Below, piece after piece: positions 2,895-27,350 of a DNA stretch of 32,000 bases (positions within the stretch are counted from its first letter, which is position 1; each line of letters opens with the position of its first letter). Below the pieces are notes generated by a model. It was given only the letters and a program-made list of their open reading frames with translations, made no database searches and was not told the DNA's origin. Both the position numbers and the translations under genes were made by a program. The DNA is taken from the NCBI GenBank assembly GCA_028713935.1, contig JAQTNI010000001.1, forward strand, positions 30,001 to 62,000. Reading direction: 5' to 3'. This DNA is from Candidatus Iainarchaeum sp. GTDB lineage: Archaea > Iainarchaeota > Iainarchaeia > Iainarchaeales > GCA-2688035.

Positions 2895-3917
2895 TTATTG
2901 CTTTTTTTTATAAATTTTCCAGGCTTCAGGAAGCCAGTGAGTTGTTTTTTTTGTTTTTATAATCCTGTCAGCTTCTTCCAAAGAAAAAAATTTGCCGCTT
3001 GTTGCCTCGCTTTTGTCCAAAACAATTTTTCCATCATGAAAAATTTTAAAAACAGCAACAACCAAGTGTTCGGGATTTTTGTCCATGACAAATTTTCCCA
3101 AGTATTTTGGCTTGCCTTTGATTTTTGTTTCTTCAAACAGCTCTGCTTTTGCGGCTTCCGCATAAGTCTGCCCGTATTTAACGTGAAAACTGCATGCACA
3201 GTCAACACAACCCGGAAAAATCTTTTTTTCAGGGCTTCTTTTAGTGAGAAACACTTCTTTTTTGGAATTGAGAACAAAAACAACTCCTGCCCTGTGAAGC
3301 AAGCCTTTTTGATGCGCTTCCTCACGGGGGATTTTTCCCAGAACCTTATCCTTTTTGTCCACAAAATATGAATATTCAATTGGATTTTGTTTTTCTAAAA
3401 GTTTTTTGTAAATTCTTTTTGCTTTTTCAGCTGCTTCGGGAAGCATGAATTTTGATTTTAAATCCAGTTCCAGTTTTGCAAGAGCATTTTCCCTGCCAAC
3501 CAGTTTGCATATGAATTCAAAGCCAGTAAAATGAGCCAGTTTGTCCGCAGAAGCAACTATTTTTGCTTCAATTGTTTTCGGCTCCGGCGGCTTGCTTGTC
3601 CTGTGCGCTTCAATGCAATGCAAAACCCTTGCAATTTTGCCTTTTGTAAAACCTATTGACGGCAAAAATTCTTCTGCAATTTTTTTTCCAACAAGGTGAT
3701 GGTCTTCATTTGCTTTTTTTGCTTTTTCAGCTCCTTTCCAATCTGCCTTCTGGCCAACATCATGCAGCCAAGCAGCAGCTTCAACAATCTGCCTGTCGGC
3801 TTTTGGATAAAAACTGCAGAGCCATTTTGCTTCTTTCACAACAAGCATTGTATGCCCGTCAACAGCACTCTCTTCCAGCTTTGACCTTGCAAAAGATTCG
3901 ATTTTATCTTTCAACAT
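2895..3917 (-). CDS. Fusion protein: N-terminal HD-domain phosphohydrolase plus C-terminal Nudix hydrolase
   Basis: 340-aa ORF. HD signature is H...AAWLHDVGQ. The C-terminal Nudix box is GCVDCACSFHVKYGQTYAEAAKAELFEETKI (Gx5Ex7REx2EExG-like). Confidence 0.8.
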   Translation of the reverse strand: MLKDKIESFARSKLEESAVDGHTMLVVKEAKWLCSFYPKADRQIVEAAAWLHDVGQKADWKGAEKAKKANEDHHLVGKKIAEEFLPSIGFTKGKIARVLHCIEAHRTSKPPEPKTIEAKIVASADKLAHFTGFEFICKLVGRENALAKLELDLKSKFMLPEAAEKAKRIYKKLLEKQNPIEYSYFVDKKDKVLGKIPREEAHQKGLLHRAGVVFVLNSKKEVFLTKRSPEKKIFPGCVDCACSFHVKYGQTYAEAAKAELFEETKIKGKPKYLGKFVMDKNPEHLVVAVFKIFHDGKIVLDKSEATSGKFFSLEEADRIIKTKKTTHWLPEAWKIYKKKQ

Positions 3918-4973: not shown

Positions 4974-5015
4974 CTTACACTTTCTTTTTCTTTCAAAGAA
5001 AAAGGAAGGGCAGTG
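4953..5015 (-). repeat. Copy A of a ~60-nt direct repeat: tRNA-Gly 3' trailer, ending on the last 2 nt of the tRNA
   Basis: Plus strand aagttctttttctttgggcaacttacactttctttttctttcaaagaaaaaggaagggcagtg aligns with 5082-5140, with only a few indels and mismatches. As RNA it contains a CTTTTTCT/AGAAAAAG hairpin. Confidence 0.8.
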
Positions 5016-5174
5016 CGTCCGCCGGGATTCGAACCCGGGTTACGAGCTCTTTCCTGCTTCAATTTTGTTTATTATTTGTTGAAGTTCTTTCTTTTGGGCA
5101 ACTTACACTTTTCTTTCTTTCAAGAAAGAAAAGGGCAGTGGGAAGCTCGAATCCTACCGCTAGATTACAGACGC
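5014..5174 (-). tRNA. tRNA-Gly(CCC) with a ~90-nt intron at the canonical 37/38 position (exons ~5139-5174 and ~5014-5048)
   Basis: Hand fold. Acceptor GCGTCTG/CGGACGC. D arm ATCT-AGCGGTA-GGAT. Anticodon stem CGAGC/GCTCG with loop TT-CCC-AA. T arm CCGGG-TTCGAAT-CCCGG. Discriminator A. CCA is not encoded. Confidence 0.8.
5082..5140 (-). repeat. Copy B of the ~60-nt direct repeat: first ~57 nt of the tRNA-Gly intron plus the last 2 nt of exon 1
   Basis: Plus strand aagttctttcttttgggcaacttacacttttctttctttcaagaaagaaaagggcagtg. As RNA it contains a CTTTTCTTTC/GAAAGAAAAG hairpin. Confidence 0.8.
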
Positions 5175-7134: not shown

Positions 7135-7551
7135 TCAGTTTTGCCCTATTCCACAAAGTTTTTTCCATTGCTCTTCCACTGTCCTTTCGTTCACATATGG
7201 CTTGTGGTGCCTGAATCCGCCTCCAAATCCTGCTGGGATGTGCAGTAATTCGTGAATCAGGGTTTTTGTTTTGTCATCCTCGCTTAGCCTGTCAAATTTT
7301 TCCGAAAGCAGTTCAATCACATAAAAAGGCTCTGTTTTCATTCCAAGCTGCATTGCTTTTCCTAACCCATGTATGCGTGCAATTGTCCTTCTTGTTTTTG
7401 TCCCTGCACTTTTAAGACAGGCAATTCTTTCAGGCGCAATATGGTGAAAACCGAGCTTTTCAACAAGTTCCCTTGCCTTCAAAGTCCATTCTTCTGAAAA
7501 AGCGTATTTCACAAAAAAAACCTTATAACATTTCAGAAATTTTTTTTCCAA
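7135..7551 (-). CDS. Putative small zinc metallopeptidase (HExxH)
   Basis: 138-aa ORF with LIHELLHIPAGFGGGFRHH. Resembles small archaeal predicted metallopeptidases. The start may be internal because it overlaps the DJ-1 gene end. Confidence 0.6.
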   Translation of the reverse strand: MEKKFLKCYKVFFVKYAFSEEWTLKARELVEKLGFHHIAPERIACLKSAGTKTRRTIARIHGLGKAMQLGMKTEPFYVIELLSEKFDRLSEDDKTKTLIHELLHIPAGFGGGFRHHKPYVNERTVEEQWKKLCGIGQN

Positions 7552-17571: not shown

Positions 17572-17765
17572 GCAGAGGTGGCAGAACTTGGTAAATGCGC
17601 CGGCCTTGAGAAGCCTTTCTTTCTAAAGAAAGAAAGCCTTGGGAAAGAAACAGTTTGGCTCTGCCAAACTGTAGTTCGCTTCGCTTACATTAGAAAAAAA
17701 GATTATTATTTTTCAGGCGAGCCGGTGTCCGAAAGGGCGCGTGGGTTCAAATCCCATCCTCTGCG
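17572..17765 (+). tRNA. tRNA-Ser(UGA), class II, with a ~109-nt intron (~17611-17719)
   Basis: Hand fold. Acceptor GCAGAGG/CCTCTGC with discriminator G. Anticodon stem CCGGC/GCCGG with loop CT-TGA-G(A). Long variable arm GTCC-GAAA-GGGC. T arm GTGGG-TTCAAAT-CCCAT. Confidence 0.8.
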
Positions 17766-21774: not shown

Positions 21775-22011
21775 ATGTTATCAATAAAATTGCCTAAACA
21801 AAAAGGCAAAACAAGCAAAATTCTTGATTCACAAGGCAAAGAAGTCATTTTTAATTGCCCAAAATGCAACATTCCAATGCAACGGGGAAAAGAAAAATTT
21901 GACAAAGACAATTTTGGAGTAGCAAAGCTTACCTGCAAAAAATGTGGCAATGTACTTTATGATTTTATGATTCCAAAAGAATCTTTTTTTGAACAAGGAG
22001 AAGCAGAATAA
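21775..22011 (+). CDS. Small zinc-ribbon protein
   Basis: 78-aa ORF with CPKC...CKKC. Confidence 0.45.
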   Translation: MLSIKLPKQKGKTSKILDSQGKEVIFNCPKCNIPMQRGKEKFDKDNFGVAKLTCKKCGNVLYDFMIPKESFFEQGEAE

Positions 22012-22085: not shown

Positions 22086-22331
22086 GCGGGGGTGGCAGAG
22101 CGGTCTAATGCGCACGCCTGGAAAGGCCTTTTCTTGCAAGCAAGAAAAGCCCTGGGAAAAGAACAATTTGCTTTGCAAATTGGTTGATTCCCCGGTTCTC
22201 CCCAAAGGATAATTTCAGTTAGAAATTTTTTTCTTTGGGGTGGACTGCAGACCTTTCTTTTTATTAAAAAGAAAGGGATATAGAGAGCGTGTTCTCGAAA
22301 GGGAGCGCGAGTTCAAATCTCGTCCCCCGCG
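22086..22331 (+). tRNA. tRNA-Ser(GGA), class II, with a ~162-nt intron (~22124-22285)
   Basis: Hand fold. Acceptor GCGGGGG/CCCCCGC with discriminator G. Anticodon stem CACGC/GCGTG with loop CT-GGA-AA. Variable arm TTCTCGAAAGGGAGC. T arm GCGAG-TTCAAAT-CTCGT. Confidence 0.8.
22311..22331 (+). repeat. att copy 1: the functional 3' end of tRNA-Ser(GGA), GTTCAAATCTCGTCCCCCGCG
   Basis: Exact 21-mer (22 nt counting the following T), shared with 23668-23688 and 25187-25207. Confidence 0.9.
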
Positions 22332-22421
22332 TTAAACGAAAAGTTCAAATCCAATTGAACGGAAAATTCAAAAAAGAAGCTTTTTTATTTTGCTTGGAGC
22401 ATAATTGTTATTGGTGGTATA

Positions 22422-22643
22422 ATGGATCAAACTTTTAAGGTTGTGATTGAGAACGGCATGGACGGTTATTTAATTGCAGAAGTTCCAGAATTGCCAGGTT
22501 GCTATTCTCAAGGAAAAACCATGGAAGAGCTTTTAGGCAATATTAAAGAGGCAATTGAACTCTATTTGGAATCGCTGCAAGAACTGGATAAAAAACCAGA
22601 AAAACGGTTTGTTGAAATAAAAGAAGTTGTCGTAAATGCCTAA
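22422..22643 (+). CDS. hicB: HicB-family antitoxin, N-terminal (UPF0150) domain only
   Basis: 73-aa ORF. GYLIAEVPELPGCYSQGKTMEELLGNIKEAIELYLE is a typical HicB_N core. No C-terminal DNA-binding domain. Confidence 0.85.
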   Translation: MDQTFKVVIENGMDGYLIAEVPELPGCYSQGKTMEELLGNIKEAIELYLESLQELDKKPEKRFVEIKEVVVNA

Positions 22644-22863
22644 GCTCAAGCTGCTTGCGCCAAAAGAACTAATAAAAATCATTGAAAAACTCGGCTTCAA
22701 GTTTTTACGGCAAAAAGGAAGCCACGCAACCTTTGTCCATCCAGACGGAAGAATGACAGTAATACCAATACACAGCAACTCAAAAATAGATAGAGGATTG
22801 CTCTTGAAAATAATAAAAAAAGAACTGCAAATGGAAAGGCAAGAATTCGAAATATTATTGTAA
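22636..22863 (+). CDS. hicA: HicA-family mRNA interferase toxin
   Basis: 75-aa ORF. KELIKIIEKLGFKFLRQKGSHATFVHPDGRMTVIPIH is a canonical HicA core. Overlaps hicB by 8 nt. Confidence 0.85.
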   Translation: MPKLKLLAPKELIKIIEKLGFKFLRQKGSHATFVHPDGRMTVIPIHSNSKIDRGLLLKIIKKELQMERQEFEILL

Positions 22864-22904
22864 AAAAGGGCTGTGTTATAAATTGTCCGAAATGCAAGAA
22901 GAAA

Positions 22905-23173
22905 ATGGTTGAGGAAAAAGGCGAAACTCCCGAAGGCGCTACATACCATTATCACAAGTGTCCTAACTGCTGCGAGGAAATAGTTGACATGAAACAGTTG
23001 CACGCTGTTGCACAGCAATACAGGGAAATGAAAAAATACACTGCAAAAATCAGCAAATGGGGAGAAGCCTCGGCATAAGAATTCCAAAAGAACTCGCAGA
23101 ACAACACTCCCTGAAACAAAACGGCGAAGTAACCTTGGTTCCGGAAAAAAAAGCAATAAAAATAGTTGCATAA
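22905..23173 (+). pseudogene. Zn-ribbon (YgiT-like) plus AbrB/SpoVT-type domain gene, apparently split by a 1-nt frameshift in a GGGG run near 23059-23062
   Basis: Frame A (22905-23078) reads ...HKCPNCCEE...KISKWGEASA*. Frame C (23057-23173) reads MGRSLGIRIPKELAEQHSLKQNGEVTLVP. Joining them gives KWG-RSLGIRIPKE, the usual AbrB/MazE start. The upstream CPKC (22884-22895) has no canonical start codon. Confidence 0.5.
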
Positions 23174-23238
23174 AACGAAGCCAGAAAGTGCTTGGGCTGA
23201 TTCAAAAGATAAATATAAAAATACGGGAAGTGCAATAT

Positions 23239-23631
23239 ATGGCCATGGCACGAACACTCAAACAAAGAAAAAACCGAAGAAAAACAGGTGGCGTACTTGC
23301 TGTCAGCCCCAATCCACGTGAGGTATATCGTGAAGCTGATGGTTGGAGTGTTTTTCCAGATGTTCGGTACTATGTGCCTGGTAAGCGCATGACTAATTTT
23401 CAAGTGGCTCTCCGATTTTCCAATAAAAAAGGTTCCGATCGTTGGCGCTATAACCAATTTTTGAAACAACATGGTTTTATGGTAACAATGGGCGGTGATA
23501 TTGTAAAGTCGCTTCCCGGCAAGAAATTTAGAATGCTAACAAAAACAGAGAAAGACAAAGTGTTACGCTTGTTAAAGTCGGGCTGGGCAGTATCTTATGG
23601 CCCAAGGCCAAAAAATACACGACAAAAATAA
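23239..23631 (+). CDS. att-proximal small basic protein, family copy 1 (unknown function)
   Basis: 130 aa from ATG 23239 (the track ORF starts at GTG 23188). Roughly half its positions are identical by eye to the ORF at 24773-25150 (KNRRKTGGVL, FPDVRY, RFSNKxGSDRWxYNQFLK, GDIVKxLPGxKFR, SGWAxxYGPxPK). A TATA-like ATAAATATAAAA lies ~25 nt upstream. Confidence 0.65.
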   Translation: MAMARTLKQRKNRRKTGGVLAVSPNPREVYREADGWSVFPDVRYYVPGKRMTNFQVALRFSNKKGSDRWRYNQFLKQHGFMVTMGGDIVKSLPGKKFRMLTKTEKDKVLRLLKSGWAVSYGPRPKNTRQK

Positions 23632-23667
23632 CCTGATGCTTGTCACGCGCATCATTAACGGCATAGT

Positions 23668-23688
23668 GTTCAAATCTCGTCCCCCGCG
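23668..23688 (+). repeat. att copy 2 (junction between E1 and E2)
   Basis: Exact GTTCAAATCTCGTCCCCCGCG. The preceding bases differ from the tRNA T-stem (TAGTG against GCGAG). Confidence 0.9.
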
Positions 23689-23742
23689 TGTTTTTATTTC
23701 ATAAACAATATGTTTTTAAATTGAAAACAGAATGTTTTTATT

Positions 23743-24285
23743 ATGCTTGCGAGTGAATTGTTTTCTTCAAAGGAGAGAATTGGGCTTATCAAGATTCTTT
23801 TTTATACGCCCAATTTGGAATTAAAAGTTAGGTCTCTTGCTCGGTTTGCAAAAGTAAGCCCTGCTCTTGTTTCCGGCACGATTGCGATTCTTAAGAAACA
23901 AGGAGCTATAAACAAAGGCAAAATTGATTTGTTGCATCCTTCTGCAAGGGCCTTGAAAATACTATTGAATATTGAAAGCCTCACCTCTGCCAAATTTGTT
24001 CCTGAAATAAGAAGCATTTTCAAGGATTGCAATGGCATTGGTTTGTATGGTAGTTGGGCAAACGGAACCAATTCAAAAGACAGTGATTTGGATTTTTGGG
24101 TAAAATCAGAATCTGAAAGCGAGGAAAAGTCGGCTAAAATAAGTCGTTTTGTTAAGCAGAAGCTTGGCTTGGAAGCCAGCATAATTATTCTTACACAAAA
24201 AAGGCTGAAAGAATTGAAAGAAAAGGATTTTGTTTTTTATTCAATGCTGTACAATTGTTTTTTGTTGTGGGGCGAAGGAATATGA
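23743..24285 (+). CDS. Nucleotidyltransferase (MNT-type antitoxin-like) with an N-terminal winged-helix domain
   Basis: 180-aa ORF. NTase motif GLYGSWANGTNSKDSDLDFWV (GSx..SDxD). The stop overlaps the next start in ATGA (24282-24285). Confidence 0.8.
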   Translation: MLASELFSSKERIGLIKILFYTPNLELKVRSLARFAKVSPALVSGTIAILKKQGAINKGKIDLLHPSARALKILLNIESLTSAKFVPEIRSIFKDCNGIGLYGSWANGTNSKDSDLDFWVKSESESEEKSAKISRFVKQKLGLEASIIILTQKRLKELKEKDFVFYSMLYNCFLLWGEGI

Positions 24286-24698
24286 TTGATTTTAATGAGT
24301 GCCTTGCAAAAGGCCTTTTGGCAAGAATTCCCGCTTCAAGGGAAAAAGCTTTGCAGAGTATTGAGAAAGCAAAAGAACTATTGGAAGAAGCAAAAGCAAG
24401 CCTTGAAGAGGAAAGAATCAATTCCACAGTAATAGTTGCCTATCTTGCAATTTTTCATGCTGCAAGGGCACTGCTTTTCAAAGATGGTTACAGGGAAAAA
24501 AGCCACGAATGCGTAATCCGCTATCTGGAAGAAAAATATCCTGAAATAAAACCAGGGCAGATTGAAGCCTTGGAAAAATACAAAAGTGAAAGAACCCACA
24601 CACAATACGATGTGAGTTATAATCCAAGCGAAGAACAAGCAGAAAAAATGATAAAATTCACGGAAAAATTCATCCAAACAATAGAAGAAATGATTTAA
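24282..24698 (+). CDS. HEPN-domain protein (toxin-like partner of the nucleotidyltransferase)
   Basis: 138 aa from ATG 24282. AYLAIFHAARALLFKDGYREKSHECVIRYLEE is a typical HEPN helix pair. Translationally coupled to the NTase gene. Confidence 0.75.
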   Translation: MIDFNECLAKGLLARIPASREKALQSIEKAKELLEEAKASLEEERINSTVIVAYLAIFHAARALLFKDGYREKSHECVIRYLEEKYPEIKPGQIEALEKYKSERTHTQYDVSYNPSEEQAEKMIKFTEKFIQTIEEMI

Positions 24699-24772
24699 GC
24701 TGGTTCGCTTCTATGCCTTGTTTTTTGGAAAATTATAAATATGGGCATGTGCTTAATACTATTGGTAGTTTA

Positions 24773-25150
24773 ATGCGCGGTGTAAACAAAAATAGGAGAA
24801 AAACTGGTGGCGTACTCCGTGTTGGGAAACGACCACTTGAAGTTGGGATTTCGTTGGAAGATAGCGGTTTTCATGTTTTTCCCGATGTTCGATACCGCAG
24901 TGACCGAATGAGTAGATTTAAAACTTCTCGCAGGTTTTCTAACAAAATAGGTTCAGATCGCTGGCACTATAACCAGTTTTTAAAACCTCGCGGCTTTTGG
25001 ATTACCCAAGCGGGCGATATTGTAAAACCCCTTCCGGGCAATAAATTTAGGTTTTTAAAGCTATCCGAATTTCGGAAAGTTAGGGATTTGTTATGGTCGG
25101 GTTGGGCAAAGAGATACGGCCCAAAACCAAAAACAACTAAGCGAAAATAG
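24773..25150 (+). CDS. att-proximal small basic protein, family copy 2 (unknown function)
   Basis: 125 aa from ATG 24773. Paralog of 23239-23631. Followed by an equally long (36 nt) homologous spacer and the att copy. Confidence 0.65.
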   Translation: MRGVNKNRRKTGGVLRVGKRPLEVGISLEDSGFHVFPDVRYRSDRMSRFKTSRRFSNKIGSDRWHYNQFLKPRGFWITQAGDIVKPLPGNKFRFLKLSEFRKVRDLLWSGWAKRYGPKPKTTKRK

Positions 25151-25186
25151 CATCATTCTTGCCACGCGCATCTTTAACAGTAAGGT

Positions 25187-25207
25187 GTTCAAATCTCGTC
25201 CCCCGCG
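25187..25207 (+). repeat. att copy 3 (distal junction, probably the displaced original tRNA 3' end)
   Basis: Exact GTTCAAATCTCGTCCCCCGCG. Confidence 0.9.
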
Positions 25208-25330
25208 TAATTTCAATTAATAGTCCAGAGTGTTGGCATATTAGTTGTAAGATAAAATCTTGGTTTGCTCATATTTGCCCTGTGTGCTTTTGCGAGAGCA
25301 AAATATTGGATTAGAGGCCGCAGAGGCTGT

Positions 25331-25594
25331 TTATTGGTGATGTTTTTGCGTTCTTGCTTTTCTAATTCTTTTTGGAGCCCACCTGTAACTTACAGATTTT
25401 CTGTTGTGATGATTTTTTTTGCTTAATAACTTTAAGAACAGGGTTCCAATTCTTCGGGCATTTTCCTGCGGATTTGAAGAACAATCAACAATATACAACG
25501 GTTTCTTATGTTGTATTGCAAGAGCCTTTGCTTCAAGTGCGCAGGCATAACATTCACGTTCGATATCTTTGATACTTACAGAATGCCGTGTTTT
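25331..25594 (-). other. 87-codon open continuation in the same frame directly after the TAA stop of the P-loop kinase gene
   Basis: After ...LEMRRR-TAA the frame reads KTRHSVSIKDIERECYACALEAKALAIQHKKPLYIVDCSSNPQENARRIGTLFLKLL... up to TAA at 25331-25333. It has no ATG or GTG, and its only TTG is late. Confidence 0.5.
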
Positions 25595-26008
25595 TTATCT
25601 TCTGCGCATTTCCAGCCTGTTTTGCCTTCTTTCTTGGATTACCAGCGGGTTTCCTTTTATTAAAACAATTCCGTCAAAATACTTTGCGCATTCAGGAATC
25701 AACTGTGTAAAAATACTGGCATCATGCCTGATCCTGTTGATAACAAAGTGCCCATCAACTACAATAAGTTTTTCGGGATATTTTCTGGCTAGGTCCCTGA
25801 TTTCAAGTGCAGCTTCTTCAATAAACTTCTGCATCTCGCGATTCGTTTGTTCTCCAAATTTTTTTCCGGAAAAACTTTTTCTAAACTTTTTTTTTAAAAA
25901 TTCTGCGCCACGAATATAATAGAACAGCGGCCCTAGTTTTTCACTTGCAAGCTTAATTGCAGTTGTTTTTCCCAGAGTATGTGGCCCCCCGACATAAATT
26001 AAAACCAT
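25595..26008 (-). CDS. P-loop NTPase, adenylate/nucleoside-kinase-like (possibly truncated)
   Basis: 137-aa ORF. Walker A is VGGPHTLGKTT and Walker-B-like is LIVVDGH. Confidence 0.7.
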   Translation of the reverse strand: MVLIYVGGPHTLGKTTAIKLASEKLGPLFYYIRGAEFLKKKFRKSFSGKKFGEQTNREMQKFIEEAALEIRDLARKYPEKLIVVDGHFVINRIRHDASIFTQLIPECAKYFDGIVLIKGNPLVIQERRQNRLEMRRR

Positions 26009-26107
26009 ACTTAACTTACCCCTCTTTTGTATATATTTTTTTGGTTATAAGAAAAAAATGAATAAGCTTTTTATTTCCAAGTGCCCATTATTTACAAGGT
26101 AATTTGT

Positions 26108-26800
26108 ATGGCAAAAAGCAAAAAAGAATTTTCTGGAAAAAAGGATTGCGGAATTGTTGTTTCAAAGGATGGGCCTTATCTTGTTTCTGGCGGCTTGCCT
26201 CTGGTAAGGGAAATTGCTGTGCCTGACAGTGAAGGCCATCCTGTAAAATGGGTGAAAGGCAAGGTTTTTCCTGCCAAGGGAGATTATGCTCTTTGCCGTT
26301 GTGGACAGACTGAAAAAAAGCCGTTTTGTGATGGAACACACACTAAAATAGGCTTTGATGGCACTGAAACAGCAAGCAGGAAAGAATTCCTGAAACAAGC
26401 GGAAAAAATCAGTGGGTCAGGCCTTGTTTTGTTTGATGCGCCAGAACTGTGCGCAGGAGCAGGGTTTTGCCATAGCAAGGAAGGGGATACATGGAACCTT
26501 ACAAAAGAGTCTGATAATTTCAAATCAAAAAAAATTGCAATCCAGCAGGCATGCGATTGCCCTGCGGGAAGGCTGGTGGCTTGTGAAAAAAAAACAGGCA
26601 AGCCAATTGAACCTGATTTTAAGCCAGGAATCAGCATTACAAAATGGCAAGGCGAAAAATTTCCCGGTCCCTTTTGGATAAAAGGCGGAGTGCCAATAGA
26701 ATCGCATGATGGAAAAAAATATGAAACAAGGAATCGCGTTACTTTGTGCCATTGCGGCAAATCAAGAAACAAGCCGTTTTGTGATGGCAGCCATATGTAA
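26108..26800 (+). CDS. CDGSH iron-sulfur domain protein (two CDGSH motifs flanking a Cys-rich middle domain)
   Basis: Start taken at MAKSKKEF (26108). Has CRCGQTEKKPFCDGTH and CHCGKSRNKPFCDGSH. The middle domain has CAGAGFCHS...CDCPAGRL. Confidence 0.85.
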   Translation: MAKSKKEFSGKKDCGIVVSKDGPYLVSGGLPLVREIAVPDSEGHPVKWVKGKVFPAKGDYALCRCGQTEKKPFCDGTHTKIGFDGTETASRKEFLKQAEKISGSGLVLFDAPELCAGAGFCHSKEGDTWNLTKESDNFKSKKIAIQQACDCPAGRLVACEKKTGKPIEPDFKPGISITKWQGEKFPGPFWIKGGVPIESHDGKKYETRNRVTLCHCGKSRNKPFCDGSHM

Positions 26801-26846
26801 GCAAATATTTTTCCAAGTTTTTTTGTTGGAAAGGTTATAAACTACT

Positions 26847-27350
26847 TTGTTAAATGCTTTTTTTATGCAGGAAGAATTCAGGCTTGTTTCAAATACGGAA
26901 TTGGCAGGCCCTTTAAGGCATTTTGTTGAAGCTATTTTTGCCAAACATATTTCTAATCCGGGTTCTTTGAAGGTTTTTATTTCAAACGGCGGCCAAATGA
27001 AAGGGATTGCAAGGGGCAATGTTTTGATTGGATTTTGCGCCTTTATGCCGCTTGGCAATGATTCTGTTTTAATAAGCCAAATCTGGACAAATACGAAGTC
27101 AGTGGCTGCAAGAGAATTCAAAAGAGATTTTGGCAGGACTCCAACAGAATATCTTTTTGGAGATTTTTTGAGGAAAGGAATTTCCCATTTTCATCATCTA
27201 GGGGTAACAGCTTTAGGTGCAAGATTTTTGGCAAGGCTTGAGAAAAACGCCCTGGTTGCTAAAAAACAAAGCGGGTTTGAAATAACAAATAGGGCAATTG
27301 AAAAAGCAAAAAAAACAAGGCAATTAAGGCCTCTCAGGGTTATTCATTGA
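26847..27350 (+). CDS. Hypothetical protein
   Basis: 167-aa ORF (ATG 26865 is an alternative start). No family recognised. Confidence 0.4.
   Translation: MLNAFFMQEEFRLVSNTELAGPLRHFVEAIFAKHISNPGSLKVFISNGGQMKGIARGNVLIGFCAFMPLGNDSVLISQIWTNTKSVAAREFKRDFGRTPTEYLFGDFLRKGISHFHHLGVTALGARFLARLEKNALVAKKQSGFEITNRAIEKAKKTRQLRPLRVIH

Follow-up and report, generated by a model that had tools for sequence, protein, structure and literature searches.

The sequence analysed here, hereafter the window, is a 32,000-nt stretch of the genome of Candidatus Iainarchaeum sp. (assembly GCA_028713935.1, contig JAQTNI010000001.1, positions 30,001 to 62,000), an Iainarchaeota (DPANN) archaeon. Immediately downstream of a tRNA-Ser(GGA) gene it carries two short tandem units, which we term E1 and E2, bounded by three exact copies of the 22-mer GTTCAAATCTCGTCCCCCGCGT, here called the attachment (att) site. 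The copies of its 21-nt core, GTTCAAATCTCGTCCCCCGCG, start at positions 22311, 23668 and 25187 and all lie on the + strand. As the T that follows the core is common to all three copies, the repeat is a 22-mer and not a 21-mer. The att periods are 1357 nt (copies 1 to 2) and 1519 nt (copies 2 to 3), which gives a unit of approximately 1.36 kb for E1 (interior 22333-23667) and of approximately 1.52 kb for E2 (interior 23690-25186). No fourth copy of the 21-mer was found in the window at up to three mismatches, and shuffled sequences predict none.

The tRNA-Ser(GGA) gene occupies positions 22086..22331 of the + strand and was identified with ARAGORN after removal of its intron; its last 21 nt are those of the first att copy. 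This copy (attL, 22311..22332, + strand) begins at G53 of the T stem, extends through the T loop to the discriminator of the functional tRNA, and is completed by the next T. The second copy (23668..23689, + strand) forms the junction between E1 and E2, and the third (attR, 25187..25208, + strand) corresponds to the displaced 3′ end of the tRNA; all three were located by repeat search. A direct repeat of the tRNA 3′ segment accompanied by an intact tRNA is the signature by which tRNA-targeting elements are recognized, and the array has it. An earlier reading of this DNA from sequence alone, which we call the sequence-only reading, had proposed three same-orientation copies at the tRNA 3′ end as the footprint of site-specific integration at a site occupied twice in tandem. 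The exact repeats, the spliced tRNA called by ARAGORN and the completion of that tRNA by the first att copy all agree with this proposal.

The tRNA-Ser(GGA) intron is approximately 162 nt long (about 22125-22286) and follows the anticodon loop of a class II tRNA. With the unspliced sequence the gene was missed both by ARAGORN and by the Rfam tRNA model, even at E ≤ 1, and tRNA-linked features are therefore easily overlooked in such genomes. The tRNA genes at 5014-5174 (− strand), 17572-17765 (+ strand) and 22086-22331 (+ strand) of the window all have unusually long introns (93, 112 and approximately 162 nt respectively).

E1 opens with a left arm (22333..22421, + strand) that holds the 10-mer GTTCAAATCC at 22343-22352, 11 nt past the end of the tRNA. 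This 10-mer occurs twice in the window, the other copy being in the T loop of a tRNA at 17745, and in E1 it forms the first half of an inverted repeat, GTTCAA-N6-TTGAAC, at 22343-22360. The arm is followed on the same strand by a hicB antitoxin gene (22422..22643; PF15919, 7.1e-11, 42.8 bits against a cutoff of 27) and a hicA toxin gene (22636..22863; PF07927, 2.2e-18, 66.5 bits, cutoff 27). The two genes overlap by 8 nt and both score above the Pfam cutoffs, which identifies them as a type II HicAB toxin-antitoxin (TA) pair. An Rfam match to SAM-V inside hicB (E 0.78) is attributable to chance. Three-frame translation of the region that follows (22872..23174, + strand) reveals a Zn-ribbon-MazE/AbrB (SpoVT) antitoxin-type pseudogene. 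No canonical start codon precedes its first CxxC, and its reading frame shifts by 1 nt near 23062; after repair of the frameshift, its product matches PF04014 (MazE/AbrB) at 4.8e-10.

E2 carries different genes. Its left arm (23690..23722, + strand) is followed by a gene for a winged helix-turn-helix (wHTH) nucleotidyltransferase of the MNT antitoxin type (23743..24285, + strand; PF01909, 2.5e-8, 34.6 bits, cutoff 21; a weak MarR match at 0.0024), whose match to the NCBIfam MntA model (1.4e-5) falls below the family (equivalog) cutoff. Adjacent to it, with a 4-nt overlap, is a HEPN toxin gene (24282..24698, + strand; PF05168, 1.9e-19, 70.4 bits, cutoff 22), an arrangement that identifies an MNT/HEPN TA pair (type VII-like). 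Logan contigs of two sequencing runs start exactly at 24516 and another ends near 24345, so that the assembly graph breaks within the HEPN gene (24345-24516) and not at att, perhaps owing to a paralogue or a strain variant.

Cargo apart, the two units end alike. Both finish with a gene for a small basic protein, sp, then a 36-nt spacer, then att. The gene for sp1 (23239..23631, + strand; MDD5162641.1, PHD95_00350) encodes an orphan protein of 130 aa with an isoelectric point (pI) of 11.2, and that for sp2 (24773..25150, + strand; MDD5162644.1, PHD95_00365) an orphan protein of 125 aa with a pI of 11.6, annotated as 145 aa from an ATG at 24713. Lysine and arginine make up 25% of both proteins, which are 60% identical (E 1e-44). 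Each gene is preceded by the same TATA-like octamer, ATAAATAT, located on the + strand at 23209..23216 in E1 and kept at 24735..24742 in E2, 22 and 30 nt 5′ of the respective ATG codons; the window holds four copies of the octamer against 0.96 expected. Both genes stop exactly 36 nt short of att, and alignment of the E1 spacer (23632..23667, + strand) with the E2 spacer (25151..25186, + strand) shows that this right-arm DNA is conserved. The content that the sequence-only reading had assigned to the array, namely hicB-hicA and a decayed Zn-ribbon/AbrB gene in E1, a wHTH-nucleotidyltransferase/HEPN pair in E2, and a common right end of a 125-130 aa basic protein gene, a 36-nt spacer and att behind this differing TA cargo, is borne out by the Pfam matches, the repaired frameshift and these alignments.

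The divergence between the two right ends indicates their age and the constraint on them. The dN/dS ratio for sp1 and sp2 is 0.23-0.38 with dS about 1-1.6, from which we conclude that the sp copies are old, under purifying selection, and not the product of a recent duplication. With the 48% identity at four-fold degenerate sites of sp1 and sp2 taken as the neutral background, the agreement of the spacers at 27 of 36 positions has a probability of about 0.001 under neutrality, and the complete identity of att (22/22) a probability of about 1e-7; the att-proximal non-coding DNA is thus also constrained. Two peculiarities of composition had been noted for the sp genes. That in codon usage is confirmed and is foreign to the host, since CGN codons specify 11 of 15 and 11 of 18 arginines in the sp genes and none of 27 in guaA (host genes use AGR for nearly all arginines). 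The supposed richness in G+C is marginal at best: the value of 0.42 compares with a mean of 0.38 for the window and falls within the 0.32-0.43 range of host genes.

The same data bear on whether the array exists at all as drawn. The source is a metagenome-assembled genome (MAG), in which repeats can be misassembled, and tandem repeats might also reflect a simple local duplication. However, the units are approximately 72-75% identical at the nucleotide level in one gene only and carry unrelated cargo, the 22-nt repeat is shorter than assembler k-mers, and two junctions are reproduced in Logan assemblies of different runs. Contig L042 (SRR22315509) spans the junction from sp1 through the second att copy to the MNT gene, and contigs L001 and L002 (SRR22315509 and SRR22315508) span that from E2 through the third copy into the flank with 100% identity. 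The recurrence of the junctions in independent assemblies means that the array is not an artefact of one assembly; this support covers two of the three junctions, that between the tRNA and E1 resting on one assembly. A recent tandem duplication is excluded by the dS above 1 between the sp copies. We give next to no credence to an artefact or a local duplication as the origin of the array.

Neither unit encodes a recombinase. Pfam searches of the E1 and E2 open reading frames (ORFs) and of about 25 others in the window detected no integrase, and beyond the units only housekeeping families. When 19 tyrosine integrases of relatives were compared with the entire window by tblastn, the best E value was 0.45 and no remnant was apparent. 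The sequence-only reading was therefore correct in seeing no recombinase in or next to the array. One criterion for tRNA-targeting elements of the tyrosine-integrase type is an integrase of their own encoded next to att; E1 and E2 have none there. Transposons, insertion sequences and miniature inverted-repeat transposable elements were also considered and set aside, as neither unit has terminal inverted repeats and the direct repeat equals the tRNA end.

To the right of the third att copy, a gene-free gap of 386 nt (25209-25594), long for this compact genome, extends to an AAA_17 gene; the gap shows neither traces of an integrase nor sequence that resembles att. Logan contig L044 (SRR22315506, covering approximately 25425-27200), which ends 218 nt short of the third att copy, carries an identical AAA_17 gene and has its CDGSH gene called at 230 aa rather than 239 aa. 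The shorter CDGSH call suggests a co-occurring strain variant.

A scan with the 21-mer recovered 15 loci from a set of one genome per GTDB species, all of them archaeal MAGs and several named Iainarchaeum, and 24 more loci from JGI metagenomes. They form four groups: empty sites, elements with an integrase, integrase-less mini-elements, and loci with Fic genes past att. We refer to individual loci and contigs by L numbers. Orthologous tRNA genes with the intron are present in L008, L009 and L005. In L009 and L031 the site is empty, and the intron-bearing tRNA-Ser(GGA) runs straight into host genes, an aldolase-like gene and a CDGSH gene, the latter 79% identical at the nucleotide level to window positions 26097-26800. 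The closest relative, L008 (guaA 81% identical at the nucleotide level), has none of the E1 or E2 genes. Relatives thus lack the insertions, as the integration proposal had anticipated. In L008, tblastn also found no counterpart, at that position, of a 78-aa double Zn-ribbon protein encoded at 21775-22011 of the window, between guaA and the tRNA-Ser gene.

In other relatives the site is occupied by elements with conventional integrases. In L026 (406 aa) and in L019, L029 and L038 (434-435 aa), a protein starts 78-92 nt past the identical 21-mer, and truncated copies are present in L014 and L037. The two proteins that were scanned match the Pfam tyrosine recombinase family PF00589 (1.3e-15 for L026, 1.7e-24 for L019). 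Comparison of the occupied site in L026 with the empty one in L031 shows 85% identity through the upstream gene and the tRNA, and homology stops exactly where att ends. Homologues of the L026 integrase number 17, and one cluster of them contains a Diapherotrites/Iainarchaeum MAG protein that is annotated as a site-specific integrase; no homologue could be matched to the PHD95 locus tags of the MAG studied here.

The layout of these elements suggests a link with E1. In the three members of the L026 family whose upstream tRNA is visible (L026, L047 and L048), the end of the tRNA is followed by 11-12 nt and then by GTTCAAATC(C/T). The tRNA is tRNA-Ser(GGA) in L026 and two other tRNAs in L047 and L048 (Rfam tRNA ends at 3157 and 3020); no second att copy was found within the L047 and L048 contigs. 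E1 has the same arrangement of att, 11 nt and GTTCAAATCC. An inverted repeat had been noted at this position in E1, and the repeat is indeed there; relatives keep its first half only, and its second half is not conserved. One implication of the sequence-only reading is not supported by these comparisons. The notion of an unprecedented class of self-contained tiny elements fits poorly with the 406-435 aa tyrosine integrases that follow the same 21-mer in relatives, and with the integrase-family arm motif at the same offset in the left end of E1. The data fit ordinary tyrosine-integrase integration at a hot spot formed by the tRNA T loop and 3′ end in this phylum.

A partial att sequence was seen in L027 (oriented 630-745), where a second copy of the att 3′ half only (CTCGTCCCCCGCG) lies 86 nt past att, as a micro-remnant of a past insertion or deletion.

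The left end of E2 has a different likeness. Window positions 23668-23722 align with L008 at 87.7% identity (blastn, E 5e-11), and the first approximately 34 nt of E2 are 88% identical to the native flank downstream of the L008 tRNA-Ser gene. The first 12 nt of E1 (22332-22343) likewise resemble the native flank of L009, at 10 of 12 positions. We read both left ends as putative attP arms that mimic the attB flanks of particular host lineages. Alternatively, the L008 lineage may share an older insertion of the E2 type that predates its split from the lineage studied here. We also considered that E2 might be host DNA, given the resemblance of its left end to the L008 flank, and rejected this on account of sp2, the spacer and the third att copy at its right end.

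Integrase-less cassettes are not confined to the window. The complete genome GW2011_AR10 has a 1527-nt unit at att that encodes a membrane protein and a Gp49/HigB-type TA pair. A 1534-nt unit in L005 and L036 encodes a wHTH-Fic protein and has a decayed right att (17/21). At least two tandem units are present in L030, one of 1058 nt with a DUF2283 pair, after which come att and then the left end of the AR10 unit, and in L025 another unit, with a HEPN gene, ends at att. The AR10 unit, unit Y of L030 and the L025 unit have in common a non-coding right arm of 125-148 nt next to att and differ in their cargo; the L030 unit upstream of Y shares the last 83 nt of this AR10-family arm. AR10-type cassettes lack sp. 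Two contigs of metagenome Ga0209211 differ in what adjoins the AR10 unit on its left, namely the tRNA in L021 and the right arm of another cassette in L030; this points to a polymorphic array in that population, or else to a further copy of the unit. The sp arm was not seen with other cargo among the loci examined.

Two observations concern these relatives alone. The AR10-family right arm (L003 approximately 7204-7347, L030 and L025) resembles a class II tRNA from which the 5′ third is missing. The loop of a GTGGG...CCCAC hairpin contains CT-CGA-G and is like a Ser(CGA) anticodon loop, a long AAGCGGA/TCCGCTT hairpin takes the position of the variable arm, and a full T arm and the acceptor 3′ strand come last; a short ORF reads through att in two copies. 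Fic/DOC proteins, some with an N-terminal wHTH, are encoded just 3′ of att in three other lineages (L005/L036, L017 and L028); in L017 and L028 the Fic genes lie a few hundred nucleotides past att, with the Fic domain confirmed by Pfam in L017. Toxin-like cargo is recurrent at this att.

Arrays of short cassettes with variable TA or toxin cargo and conserved right ends, as seen in the window, L030, L025 and AR10, recall integrons, and TA cassettes are typical stabilisers of chromosomal integron arrays. The tRNA-Ser 3′ end could on this account be an attI-like site at which a chromosomal integrase encoded elsewhere shuffles promoter-bearing TA cassettes with family-specific right-end modules. 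Nevertheless, no IntI-type integrase and no attC-like imperfect palindrome were found, the repeat is a plain tRNA 3′ end of the sort that integration of an island ordinarily leaves, the integrases that were found reside inside mobile elements rather than beside the array, and each array has only two or three units. An integron in the strict sense was rejected, in that a GATGC/GCATC stem in the E1 spacer is absent in E2, the repeat is the tRNA 3′ end and no integrase lies nearby; for the broader integron-like platform we see little prospect.

The only gene common to both units is that for sp, and its nature was examined by an extensive search. A word index of 5.8 billion protein clusters and an exhaustive hidden Markov model (HMM) search of 1.84 billion representatives were used, together with Pfam, PHROGs, NCBIfam, PDB profiles, IMG/VR, GenBank phages and PLSDB plasmids. 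In all of these databases, apart from a weak NHL-repeat-like signal, the only relatives of sp were its self-copies and the Logan copy of sp1; tblastn found no match in the other fetched loci. The best library match is an NHL-repeat protein (E 1.8e-4, summed over five repeats), and the best PDB matches are to the TRIM71 NHL domain (E 0.1). An NHL HMM, which was built from the best library match and is hence biased, scored sp2 at 10.5 bits (reached by 0 of 500 shuffles) and sp1 at 5.3 bits (4 of 500), so that sp may resemble about 1.5 NHL blades at most. The AlphaFold2 model of sp is poor (pLDDT 51), and Foldseek returned nothing with an E value below 1.

One could suppose that E1 and E2 are autonomous minimal elements in which sp does the work of an integrase, as a small site-specific recombinase of a novel kind whose substrate is the neighbouring att. 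In the circular form sp would adjoin attP, the usual place of an integrase; it is shared by both units when no other gene is, it is very basic (pI 11.2-11.6), and it has its own promoter, foreign codon usage and a history of purifying selection. Set against this, Pfam, PHROGs, NCBIfam and PDB connect sp with none of the tyrosine, serine, HUH and DDE enzymes, its weak similarities are restricted to NHL β-propeller blades, and no motif of a recombinase can be recognized in it. An HUH motif in particular is excluded, as no histidine is common to sp1 and sp2 (the sole histidine of sp1 is arginine in sp2). Furthermore, conventional integrases already explain the use of att in relatives, E1 has their arm motif, and AR10-type cassettes do without sp. 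We consider a recombinase role for sp very improbable. Our best guess, drawn only from its position, charge and conservation, is that sp may be a nucleic-acid-binding accessory protein of the att-proximal arm. Two other origins were rejected. A split integrase of the SSV type is incompatible with sp ORFs that stop 36 nt before att and with the lack of Int(N)/Int(C) or other integrase similarity, and a viral origin was discarded when IMG/VR yielded no match for the att 21-mer, for sp or for the L026 integrase.

We favour the view, to which we assign a probability of roughly 0.6, that E1 and E2 are two non-autonomous, integrase-less mini-elements resembling cis-mobilisable elements (CIMEs), accreted in tandem at the attB site in the 3′ end of tRNA-Ser(GGA). 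The integrases at the same att in relatives and the arm motif of E1 bring both units within the known range of integrase-less, att-flanked elements that can be mobilised in trans or in cis, and the units are probably not autonomous. Under this view, each unit would have entered as a small circle whose attP comprised the 22-nt tRNA 3′ end between sp with its 36-nt spacer on one side and an element-specific left arm on the other. A tyrosine integrase supplied in trans would recombine attP with the segment of the tRNA from the T loop to the 3′ end; this integrase could come from one of the larger elements whose family is found at this att in relatives, and E1 matches the L026/P0005/P0010 family. 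Recombination would regenerate the tRNA and displace the old 3′ end to the right, and a second arrival would insert at the tRNA-proximal att and push the resident unit outward. The type II TA pairs (HicAB; MNT/HEPN) would penalise loss and so retain the units, plausibly acting as addiction modules. The sp gene and the constrained spacer would constitute the conserved att-proximal arm, where sp would most likely bind nucleic acid as an architectural or accessory factor for the helper integrase. We infer the integrase acting in trans, the order of arrival, mobility at the present day and the role of sp.

Several results weigh against this view. The E2 left arm lacks the GTTCAAATCC motif, and the pseudogene within E1 is a sign of some decay. 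No integrase was found in the 32-kb window or in approximately 0.8 kb of additional Logan sequence. Protein look-ups revealed, for this species, neither an empty site nor an array with a single element, and no junction of a circular form: exact look-ups of sp1, HicA, HicB, the 78-aa Zn-ribbon protein, guaA and an antisense ORF in Logan/ENA returned nothing, and every contig retrieved with MNT, sp2 and AAA17 agreed with the array. In a set of about 15 billion proteins, sp is confined to one population, so there is no sign of an sp family that spreads, and no DNA-binding or recombinase fold is detectable in it. The link between sp and the integrases is positional only, as the right ends of integrase-bearing relatives were not recovered.

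Some of these results would also be expected if E1 and E2 were inert fossils, that is, independent deletion remnants of two full-size integrase elements, now immobile and kept by their TA modules, with sp as surviving cargo. The integrase-free window, the E1 pseudogene, the restriction of sp to one population and the lack of excision evidence are all compatible with this explanation; in addition, loss of the integrase after integration is documented for archaeal mobile genetic elements (PMC8371274), and decay is the standard model for the origin of CIMEs (PMC5704250). On the other hand, two separate decays would both have had to strip away the integrase and all else and yet to spare an exact att, a TA pair and a selected right arm and to reach nearly equal size, and no integrase pseudogene fragments remain in the window. 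Decay also accounts poorly for several unrelated integrase-less cassettes of 1.0-1.5 kb with a common right arm at the same att, or for one array with two junctions in one metagenome. We judge the fossil explanation unlikely, but it is one to be taken seriously. The perfect att copies, the common right arm under selection, the differing left arms and cargo, the similar minimal size and the recurrence of such cassettes in other Iainarchaeota favour a satellite lineage that propagates over a pair of wrecks of separate origin.

A bolder extension, which we put forward tentatively and regard as rather doubtful, is that E1 and E2 belong to an undescribed class of propagating integrase-less TA mini-cassettes (1.0-1.5 kb) in Iainarchaeota. 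Such cassettes would parasitise the tyrosine integrases of larger elements and form arrays at the tRNA-Ser 3′ end, their lineages being defined by the right arm (non-coding hairpins in AR10, sp and its spacer here). The sp protein would then be a new cassette-encoded recombination accessory or directionality factor, and the locus would be the counterpart, in function, of an integron array.

The genomes of DPANN archaea are tiny, and their mobile DNA is very little known. If E1 and E2 do represent a propagating lineage, few site-specific integrative elements on record would be as small, CIME-like satellite strategies and TA-stabilised cassette arrays would exist in archaea, and the tRNA-Ser 3′ end would be a hot spot of gene flux in Iainarchaeota. 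They would also offer a compact test system, consisting of a 22-nt att, a 36-nt arm, one 15-kDa protein and a candidate integrase family, that could address how archaeal integrases are assisted or hijacked; these enzymes have so far been thought to need no directionality factors (PMC8371274). Should E1 and E2 be no more than fossils, the locus would be one more hot spot of integration that has decayed in the ordinary way.

Among known systems the closest parallel is provided by CIMEs and their tandem accretion at att sites, exemplified by the ICESt1-related elements of Streptococcus thermophilus (PMC5704250). Like E1 and E2, CIMEs are bounded by attL and attR, lack integration genes, lie in tandem at the 3′ end of a target gene and require the integrase of a related element. 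Perfect att copies flank both E1 and E2, which have no integration or transfer genes; as to derivation from an integrase family, the L026-family motif is on the left arm of E1 and not of E2, and integrase remnants are absent. As to excision or transfer, the one indirect hint comes from the analogous AR10-family array with its two alternative junctions. Unlike the ICESt1-type CIMEs, E1 and E2 reside in a DPANN archaeon rather than a Firmicute, have no conjugation context, are far smaller (1.4-1.5 kb) and contain only TA genes and one orphan gene. Their right arm, moreover, is protein-coding and under selection, which suggests a propagating non-autonomous lineage rather than one-off decay.

Tandem islands with displaced tRNA fragments at tRNA and tmRNA genes are known from Islander (PMC4383910) and from the tycheposons of Prochlorococcus (bioRxiv 10.1101/2020.12.28.424599). 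There, as at the present locus, the tRNA is regenerated, a displaced 3′ fragment marks each boundary and older elements are pushed outward; degenerate integrase-less remnants with partial tRNAs are also known. Such arrays are anchored by integrase elements in the same genome, whereas here no integrase lies within 32 kb and none of the att copies has decayed. Tandem integration and integrase loss in archaeal mobile genetic elements have been reviewed (PMC8371274); the ‘suicidal’ integrases of the SSV type are a further archaeal comparison (PMC7253208). Archaeal elements share with E1 and E2 integration in tandem at a tRNA 3′ end, but those described are several kilobases or longer and have replication or structural genes.

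For sp, the only archaeal precedent of an integrase helper is provided by Orf2 and Orf3 of SNJ2 (111 and 141 aa), accessory proteins of an archaeal integrase (PMC5861418). As proposed for sp, these proteins and the bacterial recombination directionality factors (Xis/Cox) are small, are encoded within the element close to att or int and influence recombination but are not its catalysts, and directionality factors are typically not conserved in sequence. No homology of sp to these proteins was detected, and sp is not encoded in an integrase operon. Integron TA cassettes resemble E1 and E2 in being one- or two-gene units arranged head to tail, with a conserved 3′ recombination module and stabilising TA cargo; E1 and E2 differ in having no attC hairpin, IntI, attI or Pc, in carrying their own promoters, and in that the 3′ end of a tRNA serves as their repeat. 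On the favoured view, satellites of the CIME type at a tRNA att are a known concept, and what is new here is their miniature and TA-only form, their tandem arrangement in a DPANN host and the orphan basic protein encoded in a conserved arm.

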